DNA of 64,000 nucleotides from Candidatus Uhrbacteria bacterium. Lineage in GTDB: Bacteria; Patescibacteriota; Patescibacteriia; UBA9934. This document shows, piece by piece, positions 6,888-29,034 of the stretch (the first letter of the stretch is position 1; each line of letters opens with the position of its first letter). The notes beneath the pieces were generated by a model. That model searched no databases. It was not told where the DNA came from and saw only the letters and a program-made list of their open reading frames with translations. The position numbers and the translations under genes were made by a program. The stretch lies in contig JABHCP010000001.1 of assembly GCA_018673485.1 (NCBI GenBank), positions 3,512 through 67,511 of the forward strand. The letters run 5' to 3'.

Positions 6888-7294
6888 ATTATATGTTCAA
6901 CTATTTTATCTTGTAATGAAAACATTTCCTTATCCTCCCCTGGTTTTTCATGGTCATACCCTAGCACATGCAATATACCGTGAACAACTAAGTCGACCAC
7001 CTCATGCTCGACCGATCCGCTGGCCTGGCGCACGGCCTCATCATATGAAATGGCGATGTCGCCAATATTTTCTTTATTGTCCGGATAACCAAATGACAAT
7101 ACATCGGTAACCTCATCTTTTTTGCGGTACATTCTGTTTAATCGCCTAATTTCACTGTCAGTGACAAATCTGATACTAATGTCACCGTCTGCTGATAAAT
7201 CAGAATTTACCGCTAACTCAATACGCCTGAGCAAATCATCTGACAAGCGCTGTTCTGTTTCTATAACGGATTGTTCAAAATTAAGCCCTATCAT
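6884..7294 (-). CDS. ybeY: rRNA maturation endoribonuclease YbeY
   Basis: HGILHVLGYDH metal-binding motif. Confidence 0.9.
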   Translation of the reverse strand: MIGLNFEQSVIETEQRLSDDLLRRIELAVNSDLSADGDISIRFVTDSEIRRLNRMYRKKDEVTDVLSFGYPDNKENIGDIAISYDEAVRQASGSVEHEVVDLVVHGILHVLGYDHEKPGEDKEMFSLQDKIVEHII

Positions 7295-8256
7295 TTTGCC
7301 ACAAAGCTATTGATCATCATCTGGAATGTTTGCAAATATACAATCTCCAACTCATCGGCAAGGTCGTATTCAAACACAAACACCATATCACCTGCTTCAA
7401 TGTAGGCCAGCAGCCCATCTGAACCGATATAAGCCATGTAACCTTCTTTCGTGAGGGTTACATCCAATTCACTGAAATCCTCACTTGTACGGGCACTGTC
7501 GCTATACCAATCACTAAAATCACCCTCAGCTGACTTAAAGCCAGCCAGACGTATAGTTGCAGTTGAATTTGTTCTAAATATAACATCTTGAGTTTCCTCA
7601 AACTCAGAGTCTACCTCAGTAGCCACACTCCATTGCGCCGGATAAGTCAGTGTCATCACCTCATCTTCACTCCGATATTCATCAACCGCACCGGTATCGA
7701 GCAATGTTTGTGGAGCCTCGCCCAAAGGACTGTAACGATGGAACACCTCATTACCATCGAGGAATGTGTCTCCATCGGTATCTGGATCTCTAACGTCGGT
7801 TCCATACAAAAGCTCTTCGATGTCTGAAAGCCCATCACTGTCCAAATCTGAACCCGACCTTATCTCGATTACCACATCTGGCACTATAACCTCGTCCACA
7901 GTTGTATCCGTAGGAATATCCTGCTCCACAGGCTCCACACTCTGTATTGCAAACCAACCCAAAATCGAAAGTGTGATTACTAATATTAAACCTGCCAAAC
8001 CAAGAATAAGTGGTAAGCGGGATTTTTTCTTCTTGACTGGAGTCTTTTTCGCAACTGGTTTCACCACTGGCTTGACGACTGGCTTTACAATAGGTTTTGC
8101 AACCGGCTTTGGAGCCGGCTTCTTATCTTCCTTAACAACAGTCTTTTTTTGTTTGAAAGCCTCTGGCATTACATTAATCACAAAATCACTCAGCTCATCT
8201 GATTGTTTGTTCTTTTGAGCTCCTGCTCTAGGCTTGTCTTGCGTTTTATCAAACAT
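7291..8256 (-). CDS. single-pass membrane protein with proline/lysine repeats and a thrombospondin-type-3-like calcium-binding repeat
   Basis: KPVVKPVVKPVAK repeats in a Lys-rich cytoplasmic N-terminus, transmembrane helix LPLILGLAGLILVITLSILGW, extracellular DPDTDGDTFLDGNEVFHRYSPLG. Confidence 0.6.
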   Translation of the reverse strand: MFDKTQDKPRAGAQKNKQSDELSDFVINVMPEAFKQKKTVVKEDKKPAPKPVAKPIVKPVVKPVVKPVAKKTPVKKKKSRLPLILGLAGLILVITLSILGWFAIQSVEPVEQDIPTDTTVDEVIVPDVVIEIRSGSDLDSDGLSDIEELLYGTDVRDPDTDGDTFLDGNEVFHRYSPLGEAPQTLLDTGAVDEYRSEDEVMTLTYPAQWSVATEVDSEFEETQDVIFRTNSTATIRLAGFKSAEGDFSDWYSDSARTSEDFSELDVTLTKEGYMAYIGSDGLLAYIEAGDMVFVFEYDLADELEIVYLQTFQMMINSFVAK

Positions 8257-8270
8257 AACACCACTACCTG

Positions 8271-8984
8271 CTATTTAGGTAAATCAAACAACTTCCCTTC
8301 TCCATTTGGATTGTATCCTGAGGCAACCTCTTGTCCGTCCAAATAACTATCATCATCTGTATCGGCATCAAATGGATCTGTACCATAAACCTTAACTTCC
8401 TCACGATCACCTAGCCCATCTTTATCGGTATCGACATCTAATGGATCTGTTCCTTCTGCAATCTCCTCAGCGTCGGTTAAACCATCACCGTCTGTGTCCT
8501 GCTCCTCCAATTCTTCGTCTGTAGGCTCTGTGTCATCAATAATCTCATCATCCGAAATCACATTATCAACCTCATCGGCGACATCCTCCACTGTATCGTC
8601 TTCTACTACTTCATCAATGGCGACATCCTGAGTCATTAATCTATATGCCAAATATCCCGCTGCCGCGATTATCCCGATGGCAACTATAACGATTAATATT
8701 ACTTTAAAAACATTGGAAATGTCAGACTTTGGAGGTGATGGTGGCACTGTCCCTCCTGCAGGTGCTGGTTGCTTAGTTGGTGCTTTTGGAGTTGGAGATG
8801 CAGCTGGCGCGGGTGCTTCAGGCTTTGATTCCGCTGGGGCTGGCTTTTGCTCAGGTGCTGCAACAGCACTTTCCACAGCGGCAGGGGCTACTGGTAGATT
8901 TGTAGGAACACCAGGAGCGTCAGCACTCGCAAACATATCCTCAACCTCAGGAGCATCATCTTTCTTTACTTGATCGTCAAACAT
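8271..8984 (-). CDS. single-pass membrane protein with a C-terminal TSP3-like calcium-binding repeat module
   Basis: Transmembrane helix VFKVILIVIVAIGIIAAAGY; DTDGDGLTDAEEIAEGTDPLDVDTDKDGLGDREEVKVYGTDPFDADTDDDSYLDGQEVASGYNPNG. Confidence 0.6.
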   Translation of the reverse strand: MFDDQVKKDDAPEVEDMFASADAPGVPTNLPVAPAAVESAVAAPEQKPAPAESKPEAPAPAASPTPKAPTKQPAPAGGTVPPSPPKSDISNVFKVILIVIVAIGIIAAAGYLAYRLMTQDVAIDEVVEDDTVEDVADEVDNVISDDEIIDDTEPTDEELEEQDTDGDGLTDAEEIAEGTDPLDVDTDKDGLGDREEVKVYGTDPFDADTDDDSYLDGQEVASGYNPNGEGKLFDLPK

Positions 8985-9011
8985 AAATTATTTATTTAGT
9001 ATTTGTATATT

Positions 9012-9920
9012 CTATCCTAATGGGTCGTATCCTCCAATGACCTCTGTGCCGTCATCATAACCATCGCCGTCTGAATCTGGATTTGTTGGGTCTGTTCCGT
9101 GCAAGCGAACTTCTTCATAATCTGACAAACCGTCATCATCTGAATCTGAATCTTCATCACTTGTTCCCTGATATCTTTCTTCGTCAGCGTCCAATCCATC
9201 AAAATCTTTATCACCTGGCCCCACCATTTCAAGACAGGTATATTTATATTCTCGGATCCCAACTAAATAACATTTAGTTGGGTCTTGAGCTTCAATTGCC
9301 TCAGCCATAATTGCACCATATTTACATTGCGCGTCAGATATAATCTCATTATCGCAATTGCCGTTAATGCTTGCGTTTTGAGCCCACAATGCATGACAAT
9401 TATCAACTTTTTCTGAACTAGAATACTCCTCGCAATCACTGTAGGTATAATCATCACTCATTGTTTGAGTCACTATGGCATCACCACAACTATCCCTTGT
9501 TTCTTGATCTTCAATTTTTTTACAATCATCGGCATCTAAGGATGTCAAAGCGGATAATGCTGCGCACGAATCATAATCATCACCTTCAAGCTCATCACAA
9601 TAAGCGGTGTCACCAGTTTGTTGAGCCAACCGTGGAGCAGCACTTGCAATACATTTCTCTACGTCATCAGCACTCTGACATGACTCAATATAAAGCCTTG
9701 TACTTTGCTCAATATCGTTGCTACTACTGAAAAATGAACTAATCACAAACATTAACAACCAAACAACAAGGCCGATGACAATAATCGCACCAATGACTCT
9801 CCTAATAAGCACTCGATGCATTAACAGCCTATCTCTAAGACTGATAGTCTTCTCACCTTCTTGATCAATCTCATACCAATCAACCTGCTTTTCATCAAAT
9901 TGTTTTTGTTCGTTTTTCAT
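9012..9920 (-). CDS. single-pass membrane protein, Cys-rich ectodomain plus C-terminal TSP3-like repeat module
   Basis: Transmembrane helix VIGAIIVIGLVVWLLMFVISSFF, many Cys, DSDSDDDGLSDYEEVRLHGTDPTNPDSDGDGYDDGTEVIGGYDPLG. Confidence 0.6.
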   Translation of the reverse strand: MKNEQKQFDEKQVDWYEIDQEGEKTISLRDRLLMHRVLIRRVIGAIIVIGLVVWLLMFVISSFFSSSNDIEQSTRLYIESCQSADDVEKCIASAAPRLAQQTGDTAYCDELEGDDYDSCAALSALTSLDADDCKKIEDQETRDSCGDAIVTQTMSDDYTYSDCEEYSSSEKVDNCHALWAQNASINGNCDNEIISDAQCKYGAIMAEAIEAQDPTKCYLVGIREYKYTCLEMVGPGDKDFDGLDADEERYQGTSDEDSDSDDDGLSDYEEVRLHGTDPTNPDSDGDGYDDGTEVIGGYDPLG

Positions 9921-9932: not shown

Positions 9933-12900
9933 TTAATCAGTACACATATTAAGATACATATCGGACAATTCAACCGTTCCCTCTCCATTTAAAGACACTC
10001 TCAGTGTCACTGTTTGTTCACTGGACTCATCACATGCGAATGTACTTGGAAGATTGATCGACCTGCTTGATCCAGCTCCAACAGTGGAAGCCTCAGTCTC
10101 ACCATCAAATGTCAACGAAATCGTTACATTAAGAATAGCGTCAACAATTGCTTCATACATATCAGCCAATTCATTCGCTGTTGTTGCGCTGTAAGCATAC
10201 GTTGTTCCATTGTCCGGCACTACACAGTCATGATTACCTTCTGTGGTCATAACTCCACATGAACCACCACCGTCTGTATCACTAATATCTGTGCATTCCA
10301 TGCTAGACCATCGTTGCATCTGAGCGATTTGACAGTCGTTACTGCTTAATACTGCCGAGAATACCTCAACACCAGCGTCCTTGATGTCATCAAGGAGATT
10401 GCTTACTCCTCGCATATATTCATCCGTATCCATAACATCATCACCGTCTGTATCTTCTGTGTCGATATGATCAAAGTACAAACTTTCGTAATCAGTATTG
10501 TAAATGTTTCCATCAGTGAAAATAATCATATACTCATTGTCAGCATACCCAGAGAATCCCAGCGCAGCGTCCTCAATAGATTCATAAATAGGTGTTCCAG
10601 TTACACCGTCAACAACTAGGCCATCGGATATGCTCAATTGAGTATCTGACTCTGTTGTATACACGCCTGCCGAACTTGCAGCCTCCAACATCAAGAACTT
10701 ACCTTCTCCAGACGACGCATAGCTCGCCCAAGCAATTAATGGCTTAAATGAACTCATGGCTTGATCCCACAGTGACATAGATGCTAACTTTGTACCCTTT
10801 AAGCCTGGGGTGAAAACAGTTGCATCATCTGCCTCTCCAACACCATCTGTGCCAGATGTACCACTGTCACCCAATCCATCATCGGTGCTACTATCATCAT
10901 CCTCACAAAGAGCCTCACAGTCAGCCACATCTACAGCCATTTCCCCACAATCACACACAACTGGGTCTGGCTCGACCTCTTCACACTCATCACCTATTCC
11001 ATCACCATCTGTATCTGTTTGCGAAGAATTGGAATCATCTGGACAGTTATCATCTTCATCTACTATTCCATCACCATCTGTATCTACAGGAGCCGTATAA
11101 GTTTGATGTGTCCCTCCAATATACGCCCATCCGATCCCCATATTTGCTGAGGTTCCATCATACGCTTCATGTAGAGACGTAATTGCATCACTAACAGCTG
11201 ATTCCAGAACCTCGATCCTGGTACTATCCCCCAGCTCTGAACTCATTGATCCTGAAAGGTCAATAACGAACATAATTTCTACATCCGGATACTCTCTGTC
11301 ACTCTGATCAATTGAAATACTAATCCCATCAGAAACGGTACATGCTGGAATATACAATGTAACTGTGTCACCACTGACTACACTAGTTGCAGTAGCGTCA
11401 TATGGCGCCAGATCTACGGTGTAGCTTCTGCTTGCCCCAATCTGATTCGTCTGCATTGAAATGCTTTGCGCAGTGTATGTAAACGGACAAGTTGACTCGC
11501 ATGACGCGTCACAACTTGGAGCAACACATGTGCTAATGCCGTCCATGCAAAGTTCGGAAGTCGGAGAACAGTAACTACCATCACTCCAGGCAGCACCCCC
11601 TGCATCTCCACCTTCGCAAACACCAGTCGGCACACATGAACGTCCCTCATCGTCCACCAATCCATAATCGCTTGCAAGGCATGTTTCTCCAATTCCTAGG
11701 CCTGCACGCTGATATAGAGTCTCACTGTAATAATTATATAAAACATCAGTTCCATCACAAGTCTCGCTTCCGTTAATAACTCCGTCACCGCAGAAACTTC
11801 CAGATGTTGTGACATTCACACAGCTCTCATTACAATACGCACAAGTTGATCCGTATGTAGCCGAGCATATTTGACCGTTGTCGATACCCTCATCGCAATT
11901 CTCCATGCCAGCGTAAACATATCCGTCACCACAAACGTTGCTGGTGCACTCTATTGTGCAGTCGTCTGTTGAGTCGTCATTTCCATCATCACACTCTTCG
12001 CCGTCGTCAACCACTCCGTCTCCACAAGACCCTGGTGCAATACAATCTATGTCTGCCCAATCCTCTCCCCACTCGCAAACAGAGTCATCACAACTTCGTG
12101 TGCGGATTGTTTGATATTCAAATGTTGAGCAAATTCCATCCCCTCCTACGCTACTATCACAATAACTATTAACTCCACACGGCTCACCGGTCTTGCTAGC
12201 GTCTCCATCGATACACACGGTGGTATAAGGGCACTCATTGGCCGTATCTTTGGAAATATCATCAGGATCAGAGTCTCCACAGACCGCAGTGCCCGCCTCA
12301 ATCTCAGCCTCAATATCGATATCGTCGCCGTCACTTAGCCCAAAAGTACCCGATGCACAATCGCTATCTTGTTCGCATTCACCATCATTGTCCGACATTC
12401 CTGATGAACAAATCTTTCCGGAATAAGTTTCTGTGTTTCCATCGCACTCTTCTGAATCATCTGCTGTGCTATCTCCACAATATGGCGCTGGACCGGAACA
12501 ATCCCAAGCACAAGTGTCAGACGCGCTTGCACTATAAACTCCGTTCAGATATGTACACGCCCCTGCTCCATAGGCAGCTCCAGACGCTGGTGCCACAGAT
12601 CCACAGTCGCACAGCTCACCACCAGCAAGCTCTCCATCTCCGCAGTAGGTACGTGCTGAGTTAGTACAATCTGCACCACAGAATCCATAACTACCATTTA
12701 AAGATCCATCATCGCATTCCTCACCAGCTTCTAAAACTCCGTTTCCACAACTCAAAACTTCACACTCTAATGTTGCGTCATAACCTGAACACTCTGAGTT
12801 ACAATTGTTTAATATATATCCATCATTAACTCCATCTTCATCTGAATCACACGCCGCGCCTGAAGTGGTATCCCCTATTTCACAGGTCTCAGCACTTCCT

Positions 12901-15900
12901 ACTATTCCATCTCCACAAATGTCAGATGAACCCCAAACTGTTGATCCGTCACAAAAGGCTGCTCCATTTTGGAATCCGTCACCAGTACCACTGCCTCCAA
13001 TTAAAATCTGATAATCATCATAAATATTATTATCAATATCTGGCACCCAACTTCCCTGTTCAAACTCAAGCTCAGCGCCTATCACATATCCAGCATCTCC
13101 ATAAGTTCGATAGTGATATGTTCTTGAGTCAACCGGACAAAGGTACTGACCGGTGATTTCGTTTACACAAGTTTCAGAATCATAATCGCTATAACGACCG
13201 GTTCCGCAAAGTATGTATTGATTCAACGGGTCAGCTGCAACGCTTACTCCCAACTCATCTGCCAAAACATCATTCCATGAAGTCCAAACGCTTGATGTCA
13301 ATGAACGCACGAAACTTCCTGACTCAATTTGTGGAATCGTGCCACCCATGTAGCTCGCAATATCAGTAACGTCCCCCAAGCGATCCATGTCACGCATTAG
13401 CTTTGATTTTTCATCAGCGCACTCATAACCTACCGTGGTGCAATCTAAATCCGAAGTACAGCTATCGCCATAGTCCCCGTCTGTGCTGCGGTAACACATC
13501 GCTGTGTCATCAATATTATTTACCAATGACATATTCTCTATAAACATGTCGTAAATCTCTACCGCAGTGCTGCTTGCACCATAGTTGTACGAGACAATTA
13601 CAATATTTGGATACAACGAACCAGATACATAATTAGGCACGGCGACATAAATTGAACGTCCATCCACTACAGCTTGGAACCCATCGATAGTTGTTTCGGT
13701 TGGACTACCTGAGAACCCGTTCGCGTAATACCACGCAAGCGGACTTAGGTACGCCTCGTTCATAATAATCCTCATTCCAATGGCGTCGCCTGTTGGAATG
13801 TTGTCGTCATAAACATTAAAGAAATATTCCTTCAGAACATCATCAGTACCATGCTCTTGAGCCATCACTACTCGCAACTCAGGATAATCATCTGAAATTA
13901 GATCATCATCACCGTCGTCGCGACAATAATATGTTGAGAAGTTCATCCACGCTCGACCATGACGAGCCGATGTTGCAACACCTGCATGGTACCCATCGGC
14001 ACTGTCGCTAAATGGGAAATACTCCAGAGCTGGCCATAAGTTTTCACAAACCACTACTGACACGTCAGCAGTACCAGAGACAGTTGTCGCCTCACAAGTT
14101 CCAGAATCGCCACAGGCGTCCCCGGGTGTACACCCGGTAATGCTCGCGTCACTACTGCAATAGAACGACTCACCCGAGTCATCAACGGTCACAATGGCTG
14201 AGGTTGCGATGTTGGCCTGTCCTGTTATACCTGCCGCTGAATACGACCCTAAAGCAGGGCTTGCTAGATCAACAGTTTCGTCATCCAAAATCATTATTAT
14301 ATCTTCACCATTTGGCGCGCCATAGACATCAACACCGTCAGCGTCAGAACTCCAACTAACCCATCCCCATGCATAACTTGAAATTGGCTCAATTGATTGG
14401 GCTGCGCCTGTGTCATATGAATACGCTGTTGCTGAGAATTCATGAGACTCTCCGGACTCAGTAAACACATTTGGACTATCCGTTTCTCCATCGACAATAT
14501 CAACCTCGTCGAGCCCACAAATACTTTGATATGTTTCAAATATTTGTGAATGATCTCCATCCATTGCTACACCGTACCTTGTTAGCAATCCCTCGCGCGC
14601 TGTGTCGTCGAGCTCATCACCATAAACATAAATTGAATACTGAGCGTCGGGTGCCAGCGCTTCGTCGTAATGGAATACTACCTTGTAAACCTCATCCGCA
14701 CCCTCGCCTACGGTGCTCTGCGCAAAGCCAGTCATTGGCATAACACAGTCTCCACCATTTTGAGCTTGGACAATTGGAGCCAACATTCTACTAATCAAAC
14801 TAAAGGCTCGGCTCCACCAACCCTTTTGAATTTCATTCATTGCTATTGTTGAATGCGTACTTGGGCACAGTCCATCATCCGTCGTTGACACATCAAGGAT
14901 CAAAAATGCATTGTCATCAAATGATGATACGTCCATCTGCATATCAAACAATCCGTAAATCTCGGCATTTAAACATGCGCTTGAACCATTCGGGAAAAGA
15001 TCTGGATCAGGGCGTGCCATGCAACAACCAGTTGTAGCTGGGCCATAGCCCTCGTCACAGTCATCATCGTTTTCAGCTACACACGACAAGTAAAGCGAAG
15101 TGTAAGCTGAAAGTCCGTCATATGAAACCTCGATTGTTGACGTTGCAATATTTGTATCCATATCAACCTGCTCAGCTGCATCATCGATGATTTGAGCAAG
15201 CTGTACTGGGTCTGGATAACCATCAGGTCCAGCGCCATACGAGCTTTCCTCGCACACTGCCAACTCACCACTTCCTACAACTCCGTCTCCACAAACTGAA
15301 GGGTCGACGTAATAAATTGAAGAACCTGAGAGCAAGCAATCACTAGAGCACCACTCTTCCCCATCGCAATCCTCACCAGCGCCAGTGGAGCTGTCTTGAT
15401 CGAGCGACTCATCACCACAAGTTCCATAGCTTCCAGCTGAACCTTCACGCAAACAACTTGAAGAACACCCATCACCATCGATGGTGTTACCGTCGTCGCA
15501 TGTTTCATAAGGAGCATCTATATCCCAATCTCCGTCTCCACACTCAGCTGCAACTTGAGTAATAGGTGTTGTTCCTTCGTTTAAACATACTGAGGAACAT
15601 CCGTCACCTGAGGATGCATTTCCGTCGTCGCACTCTTCTCCACCTTGATCGTCCTCATGTGCCTCATCAAGATTTCCACAAGTTGCTCCGACTGACTGCG
15701 AGCCCTCGTTCAAACACGAACTTGAGCATCCGTCACCATTTCTCGAATTACTATCATCGCACTCCTCACCAGCATCCAAGTCTCCGTCTCCACAACATGA
15801 CGCGTCGTCTTGACCACAAGTTGAACTAGAATAAACACACTCTTCGTCAGACCCGCAAACTGTGCCAGAGATTGAGCAAGTGCCCTCCAGTGTTTCAGTG

Positions 15901-18900
15901 TCGCTGATCTCACAAACATCCTGACACTCCACGTCTGTACTACACGAGTCTCCAGTACTAGAGCATGAATACGTACAGGCGCTGGAACCAACATTTTGAC
16001 ATGTACTTGAACACGTAACATCGTCGGTGTCATCGCAGTCCTCACCAATCTCTACTATACCGTTACCACAAATTCCATAATATATTTCAGATCCTGTAGC
16101 AACGCACTCGGAAGTGCATCCAGACGGAATATTAGTTTGTCCGACATCAAATAGATCGCTTGAAATAGTCACCCACTGCGCGACATCCTCATCATCCACT
16201 ATTGGATCGGTCCACACCCACTCATATTCATAGCCATTCAATTCTTGTCCGGCAACTGAACAACTATCCGGATCTCCATAGGCAGTTACTTCGTAATACT
16301 GTGTGTCGCCAATGCTATCAAGTGTAATATTTTCTGGCTCCAAGCCTATGCGACCGACCAAACAAAGTGCATCGTCGTCCTTAGTCCCAAAAGTCCAAGA
16401 AAAATCATCGCCATAGTTTGTTCGTGACAGTGGAACTCCGCTTGTCGAGATAGCTGACCCCGAAACTATAACTCTATAATATTCTGCTTCTTTCAGCTCT
16501 GTGCCATATGTAGTGTCAGAAATTACCAGAGCAACCTCTGAACATCCAACAGATTCGATATCAGTTGAATCTCCAATAGAATCTGTATCGCTACAGCTTG
16601 CCACAGTTGTAATTTCTGAAAGAGTTGCGCAAAGCTCGTTCGCGCATGAATACAACGCTATATCACCAAGAACTGAATCATCCATTAGTGTATTGAAAGT
16701 TACGCTGATCGCACCGTTAATGCATGCGGTATCACAGTCTGGCAAGTAATCACTTACATAAGGATCCGCAAAGTTCACTATCACCTCGGCGTCTCCCTCT
16801 GTACCACTAGCCTGCTCTTCTGCAGTTAGCACCGTCGTACCCTCCGCTACCGCCACTGCTGACTGACAATACTCGTCGCTTATAGTCGCACAACTCGTCA
16901 GCCCAACATATGAACCAGTATCCAAATCCCAATCCCATGAGTAATCAACTGGATTTAGCACCTGGCACTCTTGAAGTGGAAGTGCATTAAACTCTGATTC
17001 ATCTCCCTGCTCGTCGATTGTCGCTGATATCGGACTAACCAAAACCTCGGATACATCACAATCCTCCTCACTTGCACCAGTTGTGAAAGTCCATGAATAT
17101 TCCTGGCTTAAGTTCTGTCCATCTTGGGACATTATTTGATCACTAACTTCTACTAAATACGAAGTGCTTGTCTTAAATTTTCCGCCATTATATGTTGAGT
17201 GTGCTGTCCATATAAACGATGTCTGAGTGGCGCTCGCGCTATCTTGCACTGAATCTGCCAAAACCTCTGCCGCGTCCTTATCGTCACCGCTTAGATCGCA
17301 ATCACTGTCCTCGCACTCATAAACTTTGATGTAGTCGCTCGTGATAGTGCTTGTATCCATTAATGTGCTGAAAGTTCCACGCACAACCGCATTAGTGCAC
17401 GCCTCTCGCGTGAAGCGATAGTTAGGCACGGCACTCACCAAAGTATCCGAACATTCAACTAAAAGTTCAGGCACTACCGGTATGGGTCCAGTTGAGAAAA
17501 ACCAGCTATACCCACCCAGCGACAATGTGGTGTCACTCGACTCTTCTGCTCCTATTTCAAAATTAAGCGTGTTACTTTCTTCTCCTCCGGCTGAAGTAAC
17601 ACTCAACGCTCCAGTCTGCGCTCCAGACGGAACATTTACAGTAATATCACTATCGCTCCAGTCACCAGAGACGACTGTAGCGCTCACACCGCTGAAAAAC
17701 TCAACTGAACCAATGTCAGAGCCAAGGTTCTCTCCATAAATAACCACGGTATCATCCACTTCGCCCATATCCGGATCAATTGCGCAAATTCCCGGCGTTG
17801 GGTCATCATTTGTTACTTCAAAATCCATAGCCTCGGAGTCAATATCGGCCTGGCTTGTTATATAAATATCATAGTCCCCTACCGTAAGACTGTCTCCGCC
17901 TGTAAATTCGTCAGGCACTATTACAGTTATTTCGGTGGTATCCCAAATTTGTCCCTCACACTCATCTGGAAACTCAATACTTCCTTGCGCTGTGTATCCG
18001 CTGGTCTGATCCTCAAACCAAACGGTGCCCAAAGAAGATCCAAAGCTTGTTCCGGAGATCGTTACATATTGACCGATCCCTCCACTATCAGGCTCAACTG
18101 AATAAATAGTTGGTACAATGTCATCTCCATAATCAACACCAAAGCTGATCTCGTTTGAAGTCACTCCATCAACTGTCACAGAAAGATCAACGTACTCACC
18201 GGCAGTGAGTGACGGAACAGTAATTGTGAGTGACGAATCTGACCACCTAGAGTAACTGCTCGTCGTGGTTGTATTAAAACTTACAAATGAATCATCTCGA
18301 CTGTCTCCAAAGCCTAGCCCAGAAAGTGACACTCCGTCTCCGACTTCAGCAGTATCAGGACTAACGTTACAAAGACTTGGTCGCTGCGTATCATTAACAT
18401 CAAAATCATCAATTAATGCACCCGAATCATCGTCGGTTGCGTCTGAATACCCTCGAGGTATCTCGATTGTAATTGGACCATCAGCTGCTCCGTCTGGTAC
18501 TTCAGCAATGATCTCCTCAGAGTTCCAACCGTCACCACATGATGGAATATCGGCCTCAACTGTGCCACCCGCACCATCTGCGAAGTAAACGGAACCAGTT
18601 GACCCAAAACCGGATCCAGAAATAGTTACATAAGTTCCAACCGCACCGTTTGAAGGTGAGACGCTACTTATTTCAGGATATGTTACACATGCCCCATCTT
18701 CACAGTCTCCACCCGAACAATCACTATCTTCAGAGCATGATTCACCATCGCAACTACCACAACTTCCACCGCAATCAACCCCCTCTTCGTCACCATCCAA
18801 TACTCTACTAAAACAATGAGCTGGCAGAATCCTAATTCGAACAGAATCAGAATCTTCATTTCCAGCAATATCGGTCACTGTAACTTCGAGCGTGTAACGT

Positions 18901-19928
18901 GCATCTTCCTCGGCGTCATCTGTGTACCAAGTGCTCTCGATTGTCACGTCAGACAAGTCTGCACCACTGGCTGCAACACTATCGAACCAATCGTCACCGG
19001 CATAAAAATCAGCAACTGATATTTCACTATCATCTGTTGCAGATATTTGAACAAGCGTTGAACTATCCGCTGGAATCATCTCACCACTATCTGGATATGT
19101 GACGCTTACATTGGGGTCCTCTGTATCAACTATGTCCCCTGTTGTGAAAGTCGATGTACAACTTACAGCCGAACAATCTAGAGAGGTTCCTGATGTGCTA
19201 TCAATATCGCTATCAACTACAACTGTGTATTGTGTATTTTCACCAAAACAGAATCGATCTTCATTAGGTTCCGGGCAAGGCTCCGATGGTGTAAACGTAA
19301 CTTTATTTCCAGAAATCTCTAATGTGCCATCAACCTCATCGCCAGTTTCTGTATTAGAAATAGTAAGATTGCCCTCAACGGTATCCTCTTGAACTCGCCG
19401 GCTAAAAGTAACATTCAAAACCACGTTTCGAATTGAAACCTCACCTTCTGGTGAATAACTGGCAACTGCAAAGCTCGAAGCCGATCCACCACCCATACCA
19501 CTGGACGCCCCTGAAGAACTTGAGCTTGAACTCGATCCTGAGCCACCCGAGCCGTCTGTTAAGGCCCCTAACACAAATGTGGTGATTGACCAGGACAAAA
19601 GTATTATTCCCAGGCCAATAAAGCCATTTAATAAAATCTTTTTCGCTTTATCCACTTTGTCAGGGTCGCCTTGGGCTGTCATCCAGACAAATCCTCCGTA
19701 CAGCACGATGACCACTGCAATAACGCCCAGCACCGTCAGAAAGGTTCTGATCAGCCTGGCGACTATGATTTGCAGACTCTCATCTTGCAAACCGCTAGTC
19801 TCACCTACAGTTTCAAGTTCATCAACTTGAGCGTACGCTGTGTGGATTGGTGCTAAAACACCTCCCGACACAGTAAATACGACTGCGAGTGCGCTTAATA
19901 GTAAAGTGAAACGTTTGAGTAATGACAT
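9933..19928 (-). CDS. giant (3331 aa) membrane-anchored surface protein with IPT/TIG repeats, Myxococcus-type cysteine-rich repeats, a vWA domain and TSP3 repeats
   Basis: N-terminal signal peptide plus a two-helix module (LGVIAVVIVLYGGFVWMTAQGDPDKVDKAKKILLNGFIGLGIILL). Repeated SPxxGxxGxYVTISGxxFG IPT-like units. At least 8 CGDGxxxxGEECDDGNxxxGDGCSxxC units. MIDAS motif DVEIMFVIDLSGSMS. DTDGDGIVDEDDNCPDDSNSSQTDTDGDGIGDEC. Confidence 0.85.
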   Translation of the reverse strand: MSLLKRFTLLLSALAVVFTVSGGVLAPIHTAYAQVDELETVGETSGLQDESLQIIVARLIRTFLTVLGVIAVVIVLYGGFVWMTAQGDPDKVDKAKKILLNGFIGLGIILLSWSITTFVLGALTDGSGGSGSSSSSSSSGASSGMGGGSASSFAVASYSPEGEVSIRNVVLNVTFSRRVQEDTVEGNLTISNTETGDEVDGTLEISGNKVTFTPSEPCPEPNEDRFCFGENTQYTVVVDSDIDSTSGTSLDCSAVSCTSTFTTGDIVDTEDPNVSVTYPDSGEMIPADSSTLVQISATDDSEISVADFYAGDDWFDSVAASGADLSDVTIESTWYTDDAEEDARYTLEVTVTDIAGNEDSDSVRIRILPAHCFSRVLDGDEEGVDCGGSCGSCDGESCSEDSDCSGGDCEDGACVTYPEISSVSPSNGAVGTYVTISGSGFGSTGSVYFADGAGGTVEADIPSCGDGWNSEEIIAEVPDGAADGPITIEIPRGYSDATDDDSGALIDDFDVNDTQRPSLCNVSPDTAEVGDGVSLSGLGFGDSRDDSFVSFNTTTTSSYSRWSDSSLTITVPSLTAGEYVDLSVTVDGVTSNEISFGVDYGDDIVPTIYSVEPDSGGIGQYVTISGTSFGSSLGTVWFEDQTSGYTAQGSIEFPDECEGQIWDTTEITVIVPDEFTGGDSLTVGDYDIYITSQADIDSEAMDFEVTNDDPTPGICAIDPDMGEVDDTVVIYGENLGSDIGSVEFFSGVSATVVSGDWSDSDITVNVPSGAQTGALSVTSAGGEESNTLNFEIGAEESSDTTLSLGGYSWFFSTGPIPVVPELLVECSDTLVSAVPNYRFTREACTNAVVRGTFSTLMDTSTITSDYIKVYECEDSDCDLSGDDKDAAEVLADSVQDSASATQTSFIWTAHSTYNGGKFKTSTSYLVEVSDQIMSQDGQNLSQEYSWTFTTGASEEDCDVSEVLVSPISATIDEQGDESEFNALPLQECQVLNPVDYSWDWDLDTGSYVGLTSCATISDEYCQSAVAVAEGTTVLTAEEQASGTEGDAEVIVNFADPYVSDYLPDCDTACINGAISVTFNTLMDDSVLGDIALYSCANELCATLSEITTVASCSDTDSIGDSTDIESVGCSEVALVISDTTYGTELKEAEYYRVIVSGSAISTSGVPLSRTNYGDDFSWTFGTKDDDALCLVGRIGLEPENITLDSIGDTQYYEVTAYGDPDSCSVAGQELNGYEYEWVWTDPIVDDEDVAQWVTISSDLFDVGQTNIPSGCTSECVATGSEIYYGICGNGIVEIGEDCDDTDDVTCSSTCQNVGSSACTYSCSSTGDSCSTDVECQDVCEISDTETLEGTCSISGTVCGSDEECVYSSSTCGQDDASCCGDGDLDAGEECDDSNSRNGDGCSSSCLNEGSQSVGATCGNLDEAHEDDQGGEECDDGNASSGDGCSSVCLNEGTTPITQVAAECGDGDWDIDAPYETCDDGNTIDGDGCSSSCLREGSAGSYGTCGDESLDQDSSTGAGEDCDGEEWCSSDCLLSGSSIYYVDPSVCGDGVVGSGELAVCEESSYGAGPDGYPDPVQLAQIIDDAAEQVDMDTNIATSTIEVSYDGLSAYTSLYLSCVAENDDDCDEGYGPATTGCCMARPDPDLFPNGSSACLNAEIYGLFDMQMDVSSFDDNAFLILDVSTTDDGLCPSTHSTIAMNEIQKGWWSRAFSLISRMLAPIVQAQNGGDCVMPMTGFAQSTVGEGADEVYKVVFHYDEALAPDAQYSIYVYGDELDDTAREGLLTRYGVAMDGDHSQIFETYQSICGLDEVDIVDGETDSPNVFTESGESHEFSATAYSYDTGAAQSIEPISSYAWGWVSWSSDADGVDVYGAPNGEDIIMILDDETVDLASPALGSYSAAGITGQANIATSAIVTVDDSGESFYCSSDASITGCTPGDACGDSGTCEATTVSGTADVSVVVCENLWPALEYFPFSDSADGYHAGVATSARHGRAWMNFSTYYCRDDGDDDLISDDYPELRVVMAQEHGTDDVLKEYFFNVYDDNIPTGDAIGMRIIMNEAYLSPLAWYYANGFSGSPTETTIDGFQAVVDGRSIYVAVPNYVSGSLYPNIVIVSYNYGASSTAVEIYDMFIENMSLVNNIDDTAMCYRSTDGDYGDSCTSDLDCTTVGYECADEKSKLMRDMDRLGDVTDIASYMGGTIPQIESGSFVRSLTSSVWTSWNDVLADELGVSVAADPLNQYILCGTGRYSDYDSETCVNEITGQYLCPVDSRTYHYRTYGDAGYVIGAELEFEQGSWVPDIDNNIYDDYQILIGGSGTGDGFQNGAAFCDGSTVWGSSDICGDGIVGSAETCEIGDTTSGAACDSDEDGVNDGYILNNCNSECSGYDATLECEVLSCGNGVLEAGEECDDGSLNGSYGFCGADCTNSARTYCGDGELAGGELCDCGSVAPASGAAYGAGACTYLNGVYSASASDTCAWDCSGPAPYCGDSTADDSEECDGNTETYSGKICSSGMSDNDGECEQDSDCASGTFGLSDGDDIDIEAEIEAGTAVCGDSDPDDISKDTANECPYTTVCIDGDASKTGEPCGVNSYCDSSVGGDGICSTFEYQTIRTRSCDDSVCEWGEDWADIDCIAPGSCGDGVVDDGEECDDGNDDSTDDCTIECTSNVCGDGYVYAGMENCDEGIDNGQICSATYGSTCAYCNESCVNVTTSGSFCGDGVINGSETCDGTDVLYNYYSETLYQRAGLGIGETCLASDYGLVDDEGRSCVPTGVCEGGDAGGAAWSDGSYCSPTSELCMDGISTCVAPSCDASCESTCPFTYTAQSISMQTNQIGASRSYTVDLAPYDATATSVVSGDTVTLYIPACTVSDGISISIDQSDREYPDVEIMFVIDLSGSMSSELGDSTRIEVLESAVSDAITSLHEAYDGTSANMGIGWAYIGGTHQTYTAPVDTDGDGIVDEDDNCPDDSNSSQTDTDGDGIGDECEEVEPDPVVCDCGEMAVDVADCEALCEDDDSSTDDGLGDSGTSGTDGVGEADDATVFTPGLKGTKLASMSLWDQAMSSFKPLIAWASYASSGEGKFLMLEAASSAGVYTTESDTQLSISDGLVVDGVTGTPIYESIEDAALGFSGYADNEYMIIFTDGNIYNTDYESLYFDHIDTEDTDGDDVMDTDEYMRGVSNLLDDIKDAGVEVFSAVLSSNDCQIAQMQRWSSMECTDISDTDGGGSCGVMTTEGNHDCVVPDNGTTYAYSATTANELADMYEAIVDAILNVTISLTFDGETEASTVGAGSSRSINLPSTFACDESSEQTVTLRVSLNGEGTVELSDMYLNMCTD

Positions 19929-19937: not shown

Positions 19938-21749
19938 TTATGAACTAAAGAAGGAACACGCGTTGTCCGATGGCGCTCCATTGCAACAATAAGGGTAATC
20001 ACTATCTGTACCACAGCTTCCTCCAGAAGTATCTGGCCCTTCTCCTGGTGCAAAACAATTTTGATACTGGTTCTTTACCCCATCCCCAACATCTGTTGTG
20101 TAATAATATGTAGCTGTATCAACACTTTCAAAAAATACTCCATGATAGATCTCTGCCTGAGTTACAACTGGGCTTAAACCAGTTTCTGACGTGTCACCAC
20201 CAAATATATCTAACGAATTTGACCAAACCGTATACCACATCTCATGCAACGGGCTTGAAGTAAGGTCGATGAAATTTTCTGTGTCGGTTGAGCTTGTAAG
20301 CGTTGACGTCATCATTATTGAATCAAAGGTAACTAGAACTGTTTGATCCAAAGCCACATCTTCTTCCAAAATATTTGGAGAAATATCGACTATCACAGGT
20401 GCGTCCAAGCTGATATCACCCGTTGTTGTAAAACTCCACACATAATCGTCACCAGCTGTACCATCGCCGTCACCATCGAGCCCGTTACCGGACGTATCAG
20501 CTATTCCGTCATAAGGAGAAATATCAACCTGCGGTGGCTCGGCCCCTATTGTCGGTGCACCAACAGTTACAGTAATTGGCTGACTGCCGGGTAAACAATA
20601 AATTGTTTGTCCGCAAGAGTTTGTGCCACAAGGGTCGTCTGACGTAAACGTGACTGTTCTATAACCATTACTAATTACATATTCACCGGCAGTTGGTGTT
20701 CCGCTATCACCCGTAACTTGGATGTTGTCAAAACCTGAATCGGTACCGCGTATACCTGTGGCACTAGTTAAGTCCACCGCTTCGCTGAAGGTTATCTCGA
20801 CCGTAATGTTTCTATCATAACTTCCAGACGCTACTGGAGTGACAGTTCTAACGCTTGGTGGAGTAAGATCAATTTCAGTTCCAACTTCAAATGACCACTC
20901 GTACCCTCCGCCATTTAATACTGTAGATCCTTCGGCGGTTTTTATACTGTCGTCGAGGAACACAGTGTATGAGGTGTCGTCAGTTGGAGAACCCAAAAGC
21001 GGCGTGTCGAATACAAATGTTTTTAAATCATCAGTGAAAGTAACACTTACCTCCGTTGATGCAAACACTGTACCGTCCTCATCTGCTGATTGATAAATGA
21101 TTATATTATCTGCGTTTAGCGCGGTGTCAACCGTGTCATCTGAAAGGTCTTCTGGAGTTCCGTTCACATCGTACCCCTCAATAAATGACTCAATGTCCAT
21201 CGCTTCTTTAAAGGTAACGAAAATTCGCGTGTTGCGAGCAACCTCGGTTGCGTTACGTGCTGGGTAATGATCGCTAAGTCCGCCCGACCCTAATGAGCCT
21301 GACAATCGCTCAGCAGATATTGTAGTCGAAGAAGACGTTGACGATGTGCCGGTGCTTGAAATTGCTCCAGTCAACGCACTAATGATAAATGCAGTAATCG
21401 CATATGCCCCCAATGTGATAATCAAACCAATGGTTGCGTTGATAAGTATTGTCTTTGCCTTGTCGACCTTGTCGCCCTCGCCACCGGCTGTCATCCAAAG
21501 GAATCCAGCATACAGAACGAGAAGTAAGAAGATGACTCCTAATGTACTTAGGAATACTTTTATAATTGTCCCGATGAGTTCTGCTAAGTCTGTATCTTGA
21601 AGTCCTGATGCATCTCCGGTAGCTTCCAGTCCTTCAGCGACTTGCGCGAATGCAGGTACTGCACTAAAAACAAAAAGCATCAGTACAAAAAAACTGACAC
21701 CTACCATCAACATACTCGCTTTGGGTAGAAGCGCTCTAAATATATTCAT
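19938..21749 (-). CDS. 603 aa surface protein sharing the N-terminal two-helix module with the giant protein; Ig-like domains
   Basis: N-terminus LGVIFLLLVLYAGFLWMTAGGEGDKVDKAKTILINATIGLIITL is paralogous to that of the 9933..19928 protein; S/T linker; Big-like domains (VTFKEAMD, ITFSEAVD). Confidence 0.8.
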   Translation of the reverse strand: MNIFRALLPKASMLMVGVSFFVLMLFVFSAVPAFAQVAEGLEATGDASGLQDTDLAELIGTIIKVFLSTLGVIFLLLVLYAGFLWMTAGGEGDKVDKAKTILINATIGLIITLGAYAITAFIISALTGAISSTGTSSTSSSTTISAERLSGSLGSGGLSDHYPARNATEVARNTRIFVTFKEAMDIESFIEGYDVNGTPEDLSDDTVDTALNADNIIIYQSADEDGTVFASTEVSVTFTDDLKTFVFDTPLLGSPTDDTSYTVFLDDSIKTAEGSTVLNGGGYEWSFEVGTEIDLTPPSVRTVTPVASGSYDRNITVEITFSEAVDLTSATGIRGTDSGFDNIQVTGDSGTPTAGEYVISNGYRTVTFTSDDPCGTNSCGQTIYCLPGSQPITVTVGAPTIGAEPPQVDISPYDGIADTSGNGLDGDGDGTAGDDYVWSFTTTGDISLDAPVIVDISPNILEEDVALDQTVLVTFDSIMMTSTLTSSTDTENFIDLTSSPLHEMWYTVWSNSLDIFGGDTSETGLSPVVTQAEIYHGVFFESVDTATYYYTTDVGDGVKNQYQNCFAPGEGPDTSGGSCGTDSDYPYCCNGAPSDNACSFFSS

Positions 21750-21841
21750 AAATATTTCTATTGTAAGTCATTACGACTAACAACATTATACCGCAAATGC
21801 ATGATATCTTCGCGATGAAATGTGGACAAAGAACAAACCAA

Positions 21842-21870
21842 AACACCACTCGATATTTTCGAGTGGTGTT
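21842..21870 (-). terminator. rho-independent terminator after the Gly-rich giant gene
   Basis: ACACCACTCGA-tatttt-TCGAGTGGTGT, an 11 bp perfect stem followed by a T-run on the minus transcript. Confidence 0.6.
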
Positions 21871-21892
21871 TATCATTTCATCTTTCAATTTT

Positions 21893-24800
21893 CTATTGAG
21901 ATAACTCTGTGCGCTTCTTCATTACCTTACCTTCAAGATCAAGATCATCGGCCTCGTCAACATCATCTCCTTGCGTAAACCTCGGAAAAAACGTTGCCTC
22001 GACATCTATGATGTATTGGTTCCAATTGTCGCCATATAGTGTGTTTGCAACCTCTTCTGAGGCTATCCAGCGGATAGTGATTCCATCTGAATCTATTGCA
22101 TAGACCTTAGGGTCAGACTGGATCTTGATGAGTACGACACCTGGATTAGGAAGCATCGGATGTCCTAAAGTTATTGTTGTCAACGTTGCGTCCGTTACTG
22201 TCTTCACGTTATCGAAGTTATCTTGGTAGGTAAAGAATGTCTGTGCATCCATGAAAGGACGTCGGACCATATCACCTGTTGAGCTATCGGTGTCGAGGTA
22301 ATAAACAGTTGAGAAGTATGAACTTCGGATGTAATCCCCTATCTCAGTTACAGATATGTCCTCAACTTCTCCTGTCACTGGTGAGTAGCCTTGTTCTCCC
22401 GTGGTTGGTTCTGTGACCTCGGAAGTTGGATCTTCGTCGATCGTATTATCGGTTGAGTCTTCTGTGCCGTCATCCGCACCGTTGAGCGCACAACTCTCGG
22501 TCTCGAAGGTGGCTGTGATCTCTGCGAGGTCTGTTCCTTCGATCTTAAACTGTAGTGTAGATCCTGCAATGTCCGCTGGTATTGTCCAAGTGTAGTTCTC
22601 TGTGTTAGTTATTGGGCCTTCAATGAGAGTATATGTTATTCCTGCGTCTGTTGAGTAATATAGATTGACGAGGTTCACAGAAGAGTTTGAAGCCCATGCA
22701 AGGGCGATGTTCTCTCCAGGGTTGAAACCTTCTTCGCATGTTCCAGATGCACTTGAGGACTCTGAGATTGAATCTACTGGATTGTCGTCTGTTCCAGAGC
22801 CAATGGATGGGTCTGGAGCGGACGATGAGACTGAGACGCCTCCAGAGGATGCTGTTGTGAATGTGGCAGGGTGGGTAACGCCAGCAATAGCACCACCGAA
22901 TGCTGTGGCGGCGGCGTCTGCCGCTACTGTCATTGTGAATGTGTAATCTGTTGAACTTTCGAATTGGTCATGTGTGACAGTTAAAACGGTATTACCTACT
23001 GTCCATGCATCTACCTTACCTCCAGGATCTGCTGATAGCGTATATGCTGCAGTGCCTGTGTTAATAGCCTCCGAGAAAGTAACTACAATATCTTCTGAGG
23101 TTGAAACGTTTGTTTCAGCGTCAGCTGGAGAAAGGACTGTAATAACAGGACCGGTTCTGTCTCCATACACAACATTTGCGAAAGCTCCGATGTCAGTGTT
23201 TGTGTTTGTTCCATCTGTTATTGAAAAGTTTACCTGTGAAAGAACAGATAGAGTACCTGAACCTTCGTTGGTATCTACTACTGTTGCCGGAGTTGCAAGC
23301 GTAATCTCAAGACTGCCGACTGTTCCCTGAACAAGATCTGTTGTGGAACCTCCAAAGGCTAGGTTGTCGAAATCTCCGTCAACGTCCACGCTCAAGTCTG
23401 CGTAACGGATGACCGAGGCGGCTGTAATGTTTTCTGAAAATCTTAGATCAAGAGTATCTACTTTACCGTCCGCATCTTGGTCGGAATAGTTTATATCTGT
23501 AATACGAGGTTTCGCGCCGTCCGTTGCTGCTTTAGAACCTGAGGTTGTTGAGTTTGCTGAGGTATCATCGATCGATCCAGCGATTGTAATAGTGGGGGTA
23601 ACAGAAGTATCTCCAATACTCTTTTCTGTAAGAACTACTGTAATTTGTGAATCAGCAGTACGTGAGGCTGACGCTACGGTGTAGCTGTCAGAGGACGTGA
23701 AGTCAGCTCCGGCGATCGTTCCAGTTTCAACGTCTTCAGTCATTGTTAAAATAACGGCGTCGATGTAACCATCTGAATCTGTGTCATCTGTGGCCGCTGA
23801 TGAGATTGATGGGCCGTAGAGGTCAACAGCAGACAACGAACCGTCTCCACCGTTAGTAGCTGCGTCTGGTCCAGTTCCTCCAGCAGAAACAGTTGAAGCG
23901 ACAAGACTGGAAAGATAATTAGACGAATCCGCACCATAGGCAACGCGAATACGCCCTCCTCCACCTCCACCACCGTTTGTGGTTGTTCCAGAAGAATCAT
24001 GTCCGTCACCTCCAATGGCTGTAATGGCTCCACTCGTACCAGAAAAAGCACCAGCTGTTACGATTTTAATGGACCCTCCAGAACCACCACCAGTTGACTC
24101 AGTCGAATCTCCATTACCAGCAGATCCATTAGCCGTTAAAGAACCACTTACAACTATGTCACCAACTGAATCAAGAATAATTAACCCACCACCACTAGCT
24201 CCAGCTTTATTAGCTGTTCCACCAGATGAAGAACCAAAAAGTATAGGATCTGTAGAAGAACCATAACTAGCTCCGTAATCGTTTGCTAAGTTTCCTCCTG
24301 CTCCATCTCCACCTGTGCCACCGTGTCCGGCACCCTGAGTGGAAAGAATTGAGTTTGCATAACCATGACCATAACCAGATCCAACCTGACTTTGACTACA
24401 GACGTTTGATCCGCTTGGTCCAAAACCATTTCCGTTACCAACCCCTGTACATCCTTTTCCATTTGCATTGATAGCCGATGTACCATCGATTGATAACGAA
24501 GCCAAGTTTTGCCAATCAACACTTCCATTGATCGTTGAGCCTGTCATGGTAACAGCGGCAGCCTCATTCAAAGTCATCGTGATTGCGGCAGGCAAGCTAA
24601 TCGTAGCCGAGCTAAACCCAACTGTTCCAGTTGATGAAAGATCGAAGTTTGTTATCGCTTCCGTGGAGCAGTCCAATACATTTATGAATGTAATATTGGT
24701 TGCAGTAAGCGATGGCGTTGCATCTATTGATGCATCACAATACATAGACACTACAGATGAATCTGTCGTCCATGTTGTTGCAGAATAATCTCCAGTAAAG

Positions 24801-25924: not shown

Positions 25925-26007
25925 GTTTAAATTGTTGGCTATATTATAGCACCGCGGAGTGCTAAAAAAAACAAACATGGGGATAGAAAAAACCCCGCAT
26001 CACACCA

Positions 26008-26795: not shown

Positions 26796-27053
26796 TTATC
26801 GTTTTCGGTATCCACCGCGTTTGCGGTCGTCTTCATTGATCTGACCAGTTTTGATCATCCAAGCTCGCTTATCTCCGATCTTCATACCGCGCAATGCGCT
26901 GTCCTTTCGCTTGTTTTTTGTCTTATCTTTCGCGTGATATCTCTTTCCTGCAACTGTTAACTTTTTACCAGATTGCATAAATCGACGTGAAAATCGACGA
27001 TACATCGCCTCAAAACTTTCTCCTTTTTTTCGTTTGATAAATATATCTGACAT
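26796..27053 (-). CDS. rpsU: 30S ribosomal protein S21
   Basis: 85 aa, highly basic, with the S21-like RRFxRxxxxSG and KRKxK pattern. Confidence 0.65.
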   Translation of the reverse strand: MSDIFIKRKKGESFEAMYRRFSRRFMQSGKKLTVAGKRYHAKDKTKNKRKDSALRGMKIGDKRAWMIKTGQINEDDRKRGGYRKR

Positions 27054-27214
27054 GTGCTTTCACCTTCCTTTCTCTGTTTGATAAGAATTACGCACGAATA
27101 GTAGCTTATTGATGCATAAATGTCAACAGTAAGGGTTTGAGTTGTTGAAGGTGTTTAAGGTGTTTATTTTGAAGTAAACATTTTAAACATTTAAACACTT
27201 TAAACCTTCCCCAT

Positions 27215-27252
27215 AAAAGCAAAAGTCCCACCCGAGGATCGCCAAGGGTGAG
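27215..27252 (-). terminator. terminator of GC-island gene A
   Basis: CACCCttggcgatcctcGGGTG stem followed by GACTTTTGCTTTT on the minus transcript; paralogous to the hairpin at 28093. Confidence 0.5.
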
Positions 27253-27274
27253 AATCGAATTGTCTACGTTGGAC

Positions 27275-29022: not shown

Positions 29023-29034
29023 ACCTTTCTCCGA

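Follow-up and report, generated by a model that had tools for sequence, protein, structure and literature searches.

The 64,000-nt stretch of Candidatus Uhrbacteria DNA analysed here (contig JABHCP010000001.1; hereafter, the window) carries on its minus strand an uninterrupted open reading frame (ORF) for a protein of 3331 amino acids (aa), designated below as the giant (Table 1). Its ATG is the earliest possible start, three codons past an upstream in-frame stop. The exact sequence is already deposited, from a Candidatus Uhrbacteria metagenome-assembled genome (MAG), as MBT3231116.1 and MBT7716763.1, under the names "hypothetical protein HN358_05075" and "cysteine-rich repeat protein". A preliminary description of this DNA had reported the frame, leaving its strand unstated, together with an inventory of surface-type domains and a proposed role in attachment. 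On re-inspection the frame is intact, the domain inventory in essence stands, and a surface or attachment role remains, judged from the sequence, the most plausible one. The architecture, which had been called unusual, is instead that of a conserved, collinear family of 1,159 clusters found at a fixed syntenic locus. The description missed the pilin-like N-terminus, which is mechanistically the most informative part of the protein and is shared with an adjacent 603-aa paralogue (p603), and it missed the giant's most conserved region, a 400-aa core.

The composition of the giant is extreme: Ser and Asp each make up 12% and Gly 11% (35% together), there are 152 Cys, and Asp plus Glu reach 18.8% against 2.4% for Lys plus Arg, giving an isoelectric point (pI) of about 4. 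This composition, and the sub-threshold scores in the window copy of two of the four domain families claimed for it, might suggest an over-long or mis-assembled, low-complexity, acidic and Cys-rich frame with no coherent function. The same ORF of 3.1-3.5 thousand residues is nevertheless intact and collinear in seven MAGs of independent origin and 92 full-length representatives of the clusters, AlphaFold2 models of its central part reach predicted local distance difference test (pLDDT) scores of 86-90, and matches to TIG, TIGR02232, Big_5 and PF18895 pass curated thresholds. The comparison of orthologues refutes an artefactual ORF, and we give that explanation almost no credence. The other secreted proteins of the cluster are likewise very acidic (pI about 4), whereas the cytoplasmic HisRS, TopA, Pyk and Der encoded in the window have ordinary pI values. 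The acidity therefore belongs to the secreted proteins rather than to the proteome, and a halophilic "salt-in" cause was rejected on the same grounds. Groundwater orthologues of the giant are far less acidic, with 9-13% Asp plus Glu. The genome had been described as low in GC, which does not hold, as GC content is 42-48%. The gene occupies about 1.4% of a genome of about 0.7 Mb, and such a share of a reduced genome argues for an important role.

The N-terminal 124 residues have the features of VirB2/TrbC pilins of the PF18895 type: a signal peptide is followed by a pair of hydrophobic helices, which a basic loop connects. An AxA-like cleavage site occurs in 80 of the 92 full-length family members. 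Against a gathering threshold of 26.6, the T4SS_pilin model PF18895 scores 37.4 bits on the whole giant and 48.6 bits on residues 1-130. The model NF045849, built on pilin-like proteins of Mycoplasma integrative and conjugative elements, scores 36.7 bits on the giant, and the classical TrbC model PF04956 only 9.8 bits. Hydropathy peaks lie at residues 1-19, 51-69 and 97-115; the last two are joined by a Lys-rich loop, DKVDKAKK, and four of the 78 Lys and Arg residues of the giant fall within the 12 residues between the helices. With free PF18895 pilins of Patescibacteria (97-205 aa) the module shares 43-60% identity; these pilins occur in tandem arrays of six to seven genes that include extended members of 232-551 aa. 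The module is also among the best-conserved parts of the giant, with an identity of 0.61 at residues 51-100. A PDB sequence search with the module gave no match.

In size the resemblance breaks down. VirB2 pilins have about 100-200 residues and end soon after the second helix, while the giant adds a C-terminal passenger of about 3,200 residues. Beyond residue 130 we found no further hydrophobic segment, and no transmembrane (TM) helix at the C-terminus, which reads ...DMYLNMCTD. The sortase motif LPxT[GAS] occurs nowhere in the giant, nor does the RTX nonapeptide motif GGxGxD, and profile searches of the giant revealed no S-layer homology (SLH) or other wall-binding module. As further hydrophobic segments and sortase and RTX motifs are all absent, the pilin hairpin is left as the only membrane anchor, and it is probably this module, taken over from VirB2-type conjugative pilins, that keeps the giant in the membrane.

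The partner p603 has the same kind of N-terminus. Its first 124 residues are 47% identical to the pilin module of the giant (E 4e-28), its gene ends 9 nt ahead of the giant ATG, and these two pilin modules are the only ones in the window. In every related locus a partner of 570-1,077 aa with the same pilin module and Big_5 domains lies directly upstream of the giant, at a distance of 3-36 nt where genes had been called. The pair thus resembles the tandem arrangement of VirB2 arrays, as an array of two genes, or of three in locus L015, where a free 129-aa pilin gene stands between partner and giant. In contrast to VirB2 pilins, the giant is not encoded beside virB4 or other genes of a type IV secretion system (T4SS): no VirB4, VirB6 or type IV coupling protein (T4CP) gene was found in the 64-kb window, or in the 8-10 kb of Pfam-listed flanks of loci L009-L011, L015 and L016. 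Since profile and topology agree with PF18895 pilins while pilin size and T4SS linkage do not, we regard the N-terminus as a VirB2-like module in a previously undescribed and widely conserved fusion.

The likeness to true pilins raises the possibility, which we consider distinctly less likely than a role as anchor only, that the module also polymerises the giant and p603 into a pilus of T4SS type whose other components would be encoded elsewhere in the genome. The two would then be minor or decorated subunits, at the tip, at the base or sparsely along the side, showing the 3,200-aa passenger outside. The close identity to free pilins whose arrays hold extended members, and the three-gene array of L015, are in keeping with this, and the conservation of the module exceeds what a generic TM anchor would need. 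VirB2 arrays moreover occur widely in Patescibacteria, and for one cultivated species, the epibiotic Saccharibacterium Southlakia epibionticum, they are essential (PMC12102498, PMC10633639, PMC12857230). Apart from the missing T4SS genes, it counts against a pilus that a small major pilin is missing from most loci and that a passenger of 3,200 residues on each subunit is sterically impossible. In favour of one, the pilins of F- and T-pili have their N- and C-termini on the outside, which makes a C-terminal passenger sterically conceivable. Pilus formation by any VirB2-like protein of Patescibacteria is itself unproven, which also speaks against a pilus, and whether these arrays build one is still open (PMC12857230). 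In a broader form, to which we attach a similarly low likelihood, the VirB2 fold may have been co-opted in Patescibacteria as an N-terminal "loading module" for passengers of up to about 4,500 residues, on a pilus or on a pilin-based membrane platform. Were that so, the conserved pair of p603 and giant would be a fibre of conjugative type that displays an adhesin on a monoderm cell, encoded at a fixed locus beside divisome genes and containing a 400-residue core whose fold is not represented in the PDB.

Behind the pilin module the giant is a chain of Ig-like domains and Cys-rich blocks (Table 1). Four domain families had been named in the preliminary description, and two of them, IPT/TIG and the Cys-rich repeats, exceed curated thresholds in this sequence; the poly-Ser/Gly linker that it placed before them is also present. 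PF01833 (IPT/TIG) scores 69 bits in four stretches within residues 418-800, and 77.4 bits on a sub-segment, against a cut-off of 20.9. TIGR02232 scores 59.5 bits (E 2e-16) in five stretches against a cut-off of 20.8, while matches to DUF4215 are weak. At least eight Cys-rich repeats had been claimed; a motif count gives 14 units, each starting with CG[DN], in two blocks. Counting Cys per repeat, about seven of the 14 have the canonical four and the divergent units have 2, 5, 6, 9 or 11. The giant thus shares with TIGR02232/DUF4215 proteins the unit CG(D/N)G-x-E-x-CDDGN-x-GDGCS-x-C with its four Cys, but many of its units are divergent and such repeats make up only two of its approximately twelve modules. 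Across seven orthologues the Cys pattern is close to invariant: 127 of the 152 Cys are kept in all seven, and all 51 of those in the second block in at least five. The first large Ig-like block, residues 801-1280, is conserved in 74 of the 92 full-length members.

Table 1. Features of the giant, its partner and the adjoining genes in the window (positions in nt; aa ranges refer to the giant).
Feature	Position	Strand	Basis or remark
Whole giant ORF, 3331 aa	9933..19928	-	translation; deposited as MBT3231116.1
Signal peptide, aa 1-33, cleavage-type site AYA/Q	19830..19928	-	sequence, hydropathy
VirB2-like T4SS_pilin module, aa 34-124	19557..19829	-	PF18895, NF045849, hydropathy
Ser/Gly-rich linker, aa 125-152	19473..19556	-	Ser+Gly+Thr fraction 0.71; kept across family
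Big_5 and Big_7 Ig-like domains, aa 153-365	18834..19472	-	Pfam
Small Cys-dense module (CGGSCGSC...), aa 366-414	18687..18833	-	every Cys conserved in orthologues
Four IPT/TIG domains, aa 415-800	17529..18686	-	PF01833
Ig-like (Big_5-like) block, aa 801-1280	16089..17528	-	Big_5 23.1 bits, slightly below cut-off
Cys-rich acidic repeat block 1, aa 1281-1600	15129..16088	-	TIGR02232/DUF4215-like
Tandem Ig-like beta-sandwich block 2, aa 1601-1940	14109..15128	-	AlphaFold2 model, Foldseek
Family-defining core domain, aa 1941-2340	12909..14108	-	AlphaFold2 model
Cys-rich repeat block 2, aa 2336-2860	11349..12923	-	Cys-repeat motifs
Putative vWA, N-terminal part with MIDAS DLSGS, aa 2861-2947	11088..11348	-	VWA_2 below threshold, motif
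Insertion within vWA, aa 2948-3094	10647..11087	-	two TSP3 motifs and an acidic low-complexity stretch
Putative vWA, C-terminal part (GTP..., FTDG), aa 3095-3240	10209..10646	-	most variable region of the giant
Conserved C-terminal domain of about 90 aa, aa 3241-3331	9936..10208	-	without LPXTG or TM helix
p603: signal peptide, paralogous pilin module, Big_5 domains, Cys-rich C-terminus	19938..21749	-	
Three co-directional small bitopic membrane proteins (302, 237, 321 aa)	7291..9920	-	hydropathy, Pfam
Terminator-like hairpin, strong, 13-bp stem	21841..21871	-	between the 1361-aa gene and the p603-giant unit

The other two families, a von Willebrand factor type A (vWA) domain and thrombospondin type 3 (TSP3) repeats, fall short of threshold in the window copy. 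VWA_2 scores 15.7 bits on the whole protein and 20.4 bits on the C-terminal segment, against a cut-off of 27, and the match spans residues 2885-2920; after deletion of the insertion that interrupts the domain the score is only 21.9 bits, still below the cut-off. The C-termini of three family members, on the other hand, score 40.2, 44.3 and 53.8 bits against PF00092, where the cut-off is 23.8. The window copy also has the residues of a metal ion-dependent adhesion site (MIDAS), DxSxS...T...D, as DLSGS at 2890, GTP at 3111 and FTDG at 3137, all three of which line up with the consensus of the family, VxDxSGSM / GTPT / LLSDG. The orthologue matches come from locally excised C-termini; a global MAFFT alignment of the short C-terminal query with full-length giants misplaced the insertion onto the Cys repeats. 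A vWA assignment for the window copy is therefore supported by the matches of its orthologues together with the MIDAS residues.

For TSP3, the segment with the repeats, searched alone, reaches 22.3 bits with PF02412 (E 1e-4, two stretches), short of the cut-off of 25, and the model PF18884 scores 13.5 bits, again against 25. Two DTDGDG motifs are nonetheless present. The strict calcium-binding motif DxDxDGxxDxxD occurs once in the giant, at residue 2949 (DTDGDGIVDEDD), and the second, DTDGDGIGDE at residue 2972, fits only the looser pattern D.[DN].D[GN]. Both lie in the acidic insertion of 147 residues that splits the vWA domain, and a TSP3-bearing insertion of this kind was found in one of 150 family representatives. 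As judged from this comparison, the TSP3 repeats are a lineage-specific insertion and not a feature of the family.

The central region, residues 1601-2340, has no Pfam family. AlphaFold2, run with a 47-sequence alignment, gave a 740-residue model with a pLDDT of 85.9 and a predicted TM (pTM) score of 0.81, in which the first 340 or so residues form tandem Ig-like sandwiches. Because its Foldseek matches in the PDB were mostly generic Ig folds, alongside SbsC and AgI/II, the 400-residue core (residues 1941-2340) was modelled again by itself, with a pLDDT of 90.2 and a pTM of 0.90. Compared with the PDB by Foldseek, the core found nothing significant (best E 8e-3, query TM score at most 0.2); one sub-domain has a weak PsbP/Mog1/LpqN-like resemblance. 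There was no significant match among the viral folds of BFVD, none in a PDB sequence search with the central domain, and none among the 8,000 word-sharing candidates returned when the central domain was queried against an index of 5.8 billion proteins. No other part of the family is detected as widely as the core, which was found in 148 of the 150 best family matches. On sequence and predicted structure, the core is the best-conserved part of the giant, without a match to a known family or fold.

How widely the family extends was assessed by a HMMER search of 50%-identity cluster representatives with the central domain (residues 1700-2330). It matches 1,159 representatives at E<=1e-3, of which 252 at E<=1e-30. 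Full-length matches are mostly 3,000-4,550 residues long, with the domain at a constant relative position. Among the 92 full-length representatives the pilin module is found in 90, the TIG block in 86, the core in 90 and the second Cys block in 82. Seven orthologues from GTDB species genomes are collinear with the giant over the full length at about 50% identity. The names that these proteins carry in their sources are generic (cysteine-rich repeat, DUF4215, VWA, IPT/TIG, Ig-like, LamG-like or hypothetical), and in 20 look-ups every named organism was Uhrbacteria or "Patescibacteria group". Four of the related loci (L001, L003, L004 and L008) come from third-party annotation assemblies titled "uncultured Gammaproteobacteria bacterium"; from gene content and synteny this title is probably a taxonomic mislabel. 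The literature that we searched contained no description of the family, which is large, conserved and previously undescribed.

Conservation is uneven along the chain. The stalk has an identity of about 0.5, and the lowest values, 0.19-0.30 with many gaps, fall in the C-terminal vWA region, whose C-terminal part phmmer detects in only four of the 92 members. Variability of the distal end is what would be expected of a tip that contacts a ligand.

From these observations we favour, with a probability of roughly 0.6, the reading that the giant is a disulfide-rich surface fibre, anchored by its pilin module and bearing a variable, metal-dependent vWA tip, that would serve attachment. The protein would be exported by Sec and its signal peptide cut after AYA. 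The VirB2-type hairpin would stay embedded in the membrane with both ends out and the loop in, a topology predicted by the positive-inside rule from the Lys and Arg residues of the loop. With both ends of the hairpin outside, the approximately 3,200 residues that follow would be extracellular. The Ser/Gly linker would cross the wall, and the stalk above it, composed of about a dozen Ig-like domains, two presumably disulfide-locked Cys blocks and the 400-residue core, would take an extended, rod-like shape made rigid by disulfides and calcium. At the distal end would stand the vWA domain with a complete MIDAS, carrying in this lineage the TSP3 insertion, followed by the small conserved C-terminal domain, and this tip may bind the surface of a partner or host in a metal-dependent manner. 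Through the shared pilin module, p603 probably co-assembles with the giant in the membrane.

Several observations weigh against this reading. In the window copy the vWA domain stays under Pfam thresholds, and its match covers only positions 1-36 of the VWA_2 profile. The strict DxSxS motif is kept in just 38 of the 92 full-length members, and a relaxed form in 47, so MIDAS-dependent binding is not a universal function of the family. The source is a MAG of an uncultured organism. Moreover, collinearity over some three thousand residues at about 50% identity between genomes exceeds what is usual for host-range adhesins, and may hint at a structural role.

Such a role would make the giant a constitutive scaffold, S-layer-like or wall-spanning and possibly coordinated with division, rather than a partner-specific adhesin. 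We consider this improbable, and less probable than a pilus. Besides full-length collinearity and the near-invariant Cys pattern, it can draw on the very large size and fixed architecture of the family, and on the structural match of the Big_5/SbsA-type Ig domains to the S-layer protein SbsC; that match, however, has TM scores of only about 0.1. The absence of an SLH or other wall-binding module from the giant is against it, as is the variable vWA tip, which resembles a ligand-binding end.

The remaining arguments for a structural role come from the gene neighbourhood. Synteny fixes the locus of the giant in Uhrbacteria and other Patescibacteria. Upstream of the pair the conserved order is LCP-lepB-hisS-rpsU-yqeY. 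Downstream stand three small bitopic proteins (p302, p237 and p321), each with a cytoplasmic N-terminal tail, one TM helix and an acidic ectodomain, and beyond them, in the window and its closest relatives, ybeY, ftsA and ftsZ. The gaps along p603-giant-p302-p237-p321-ybeY, of 9, 12, 27, 14 and -4 nt, are operon-like. The small proteins are conserved in L001-L007, L010 and L016, and two more distant loci retain only two of them. Bacterial TSP3 repeats are recognised by Pfam in p302 and p237. Among orthologues in L001-L007 the cytoplasmic N-termini carry short and strongly conserved motifs, QFYEL in p302, MFDDQ...EDMFA in p237 and (I/N)HVMPxxF in p321, which suggest a common cytoplasmic binding partner. 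Both the constant position beside ybeY-ftsA-ftsZ and these three co-operonic proteins with their cytoplasmic motifs would suit an envelope structure. Yet one distant member has lost the linkage to ftsA and ftsZ though it has kept its pilin partner, and the linkage may therefore reflect mere inertia of gene order.

Other features of the surroundings can be noted. Between yqeY and the p603-giant pair lies a gene for a secreted, Gly-rich protein of 1361 residues with one Big_5 domain (21893..25978, minus strand), separated from the pair by the hairpin listed in Table 1; most relatives lack the gene at that position, and related fragments occur in L001. A GC-rich (about 0.53) segment of 2.2 kb at 27100..29290 separates rpsU (26796..27053, minus strand) from hisS. 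It contains a 284-residue ORF (28168..29022, minus strand) with no Pfam or NCBIfam match. In two relatives that were checked, which lack the segment, rpsU follows hisS after about 25-85 nt, and the segment is thus probably a lineage-specific insertion. At 34839..35660 (plus strand) a protein of 273 residues has bacterial TSP3 repeats (PF18884, 34.8 bits), so that TSP3-bearing ectodomains seem to be a recurrent surface module of this genome. Near the giant locus of a distant family member (L009, 3671..4069) there is a VKOR-family gene, which bears on the possible oxidation of 130-180 extracellular Cys residues; within the window itself neither a VKOR nor a Dsb gene was seen. Finally, the stretch of lowest GC in the window (0.36) holds a Bsp6I-family endonuclease gene (57668..58276, plus strand), adjoined by a 531-residue ORF (58273..59868, minus strand) in which LexA DNA-binding and S24 peptidase domains are fused to a C-5 cytosine methyltransferase. 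From their sequences the two look like a type II restriction-modification pair; the LexA-Dcm fusion is unusual.

Among known surface proteins, the pilin-anchored fibre that we favour compares in its tip with vWA/MIDAS-tipped adhesins, such as the Gram-positive pilus-tip proteins RrgA and GBS104, CglB of Myxococcus and, by analogy, the integrins. The giant shares with them a distal vWA domain with DxSxS...T...D on an Ig-like stalk, and its combination of Cys-rich repeats, vWA and Ig-like domains resembles the logic of integrin ectodomains. Its vWA domain, in comparison with theirs, is sub-threshold and broken by an insertion, and PDB searches of the regions tested gave no sequence relationship to these adhesins. 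Unlike the Gram-positive tip adhesins, it is anchored by an N-terminal pilin hairpin and has no LPXTG/sortase signal. The LPXTG motif, hydrophobic stretch and basic tail of sortase-anchored pilus and MSCRAMM adhesins are accordingly not found in it, and neither are the GGxGxD repeats that mark the C-terminal part of giant adhesins secreted by type I systems, such as LapA and SiiE.

Giant membrane proteins of the candidate phyla radiation are thought to mediate attachment to hosts, as in Vampirococcus lugosii, where they have 1,392-4,163 residues (PMC8080830). They resemble the present giant in being very large and membrane-associated, with interaction or adhesion domains, in an ultra-small bacterium of reduced genome. 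Compared as domain sets rather than by homology, they differ: theirs include WD40, PKD, saposin and DUF11. What sets the family described here apart is the fixed, collinear order of its domains, together with its anchor of pilin type and its conservation of synteny at the locus. Giant genes surveyed in predatory bacteria belong to other lineages and other secretion contexts. A survey of T4SS components in Patescibacteria that used PF18895 reported no adhesins such as PrgB, and makes no mention of pilin modules fused to large ectodomains (PMC12102498). Its criterion was coverage of the HMM profile and not of the protein (PMC12102498); fusions of this kind could thus have entered its counts as pilins, their size unnoted.

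By what means the ultra-small Patescibacteria adhere to their partner cells is a central question that is still open. The family of the giant would join this question to that of the VirB2 arrays, as it fuses a VirB2-type module to a conserved, adhesin-like ectodomain. It also offers handles on both: a protein to be sought at the cell surface or on a pilus, a variable vWA tip, and a confident model of an unassigned 400-residue domain.

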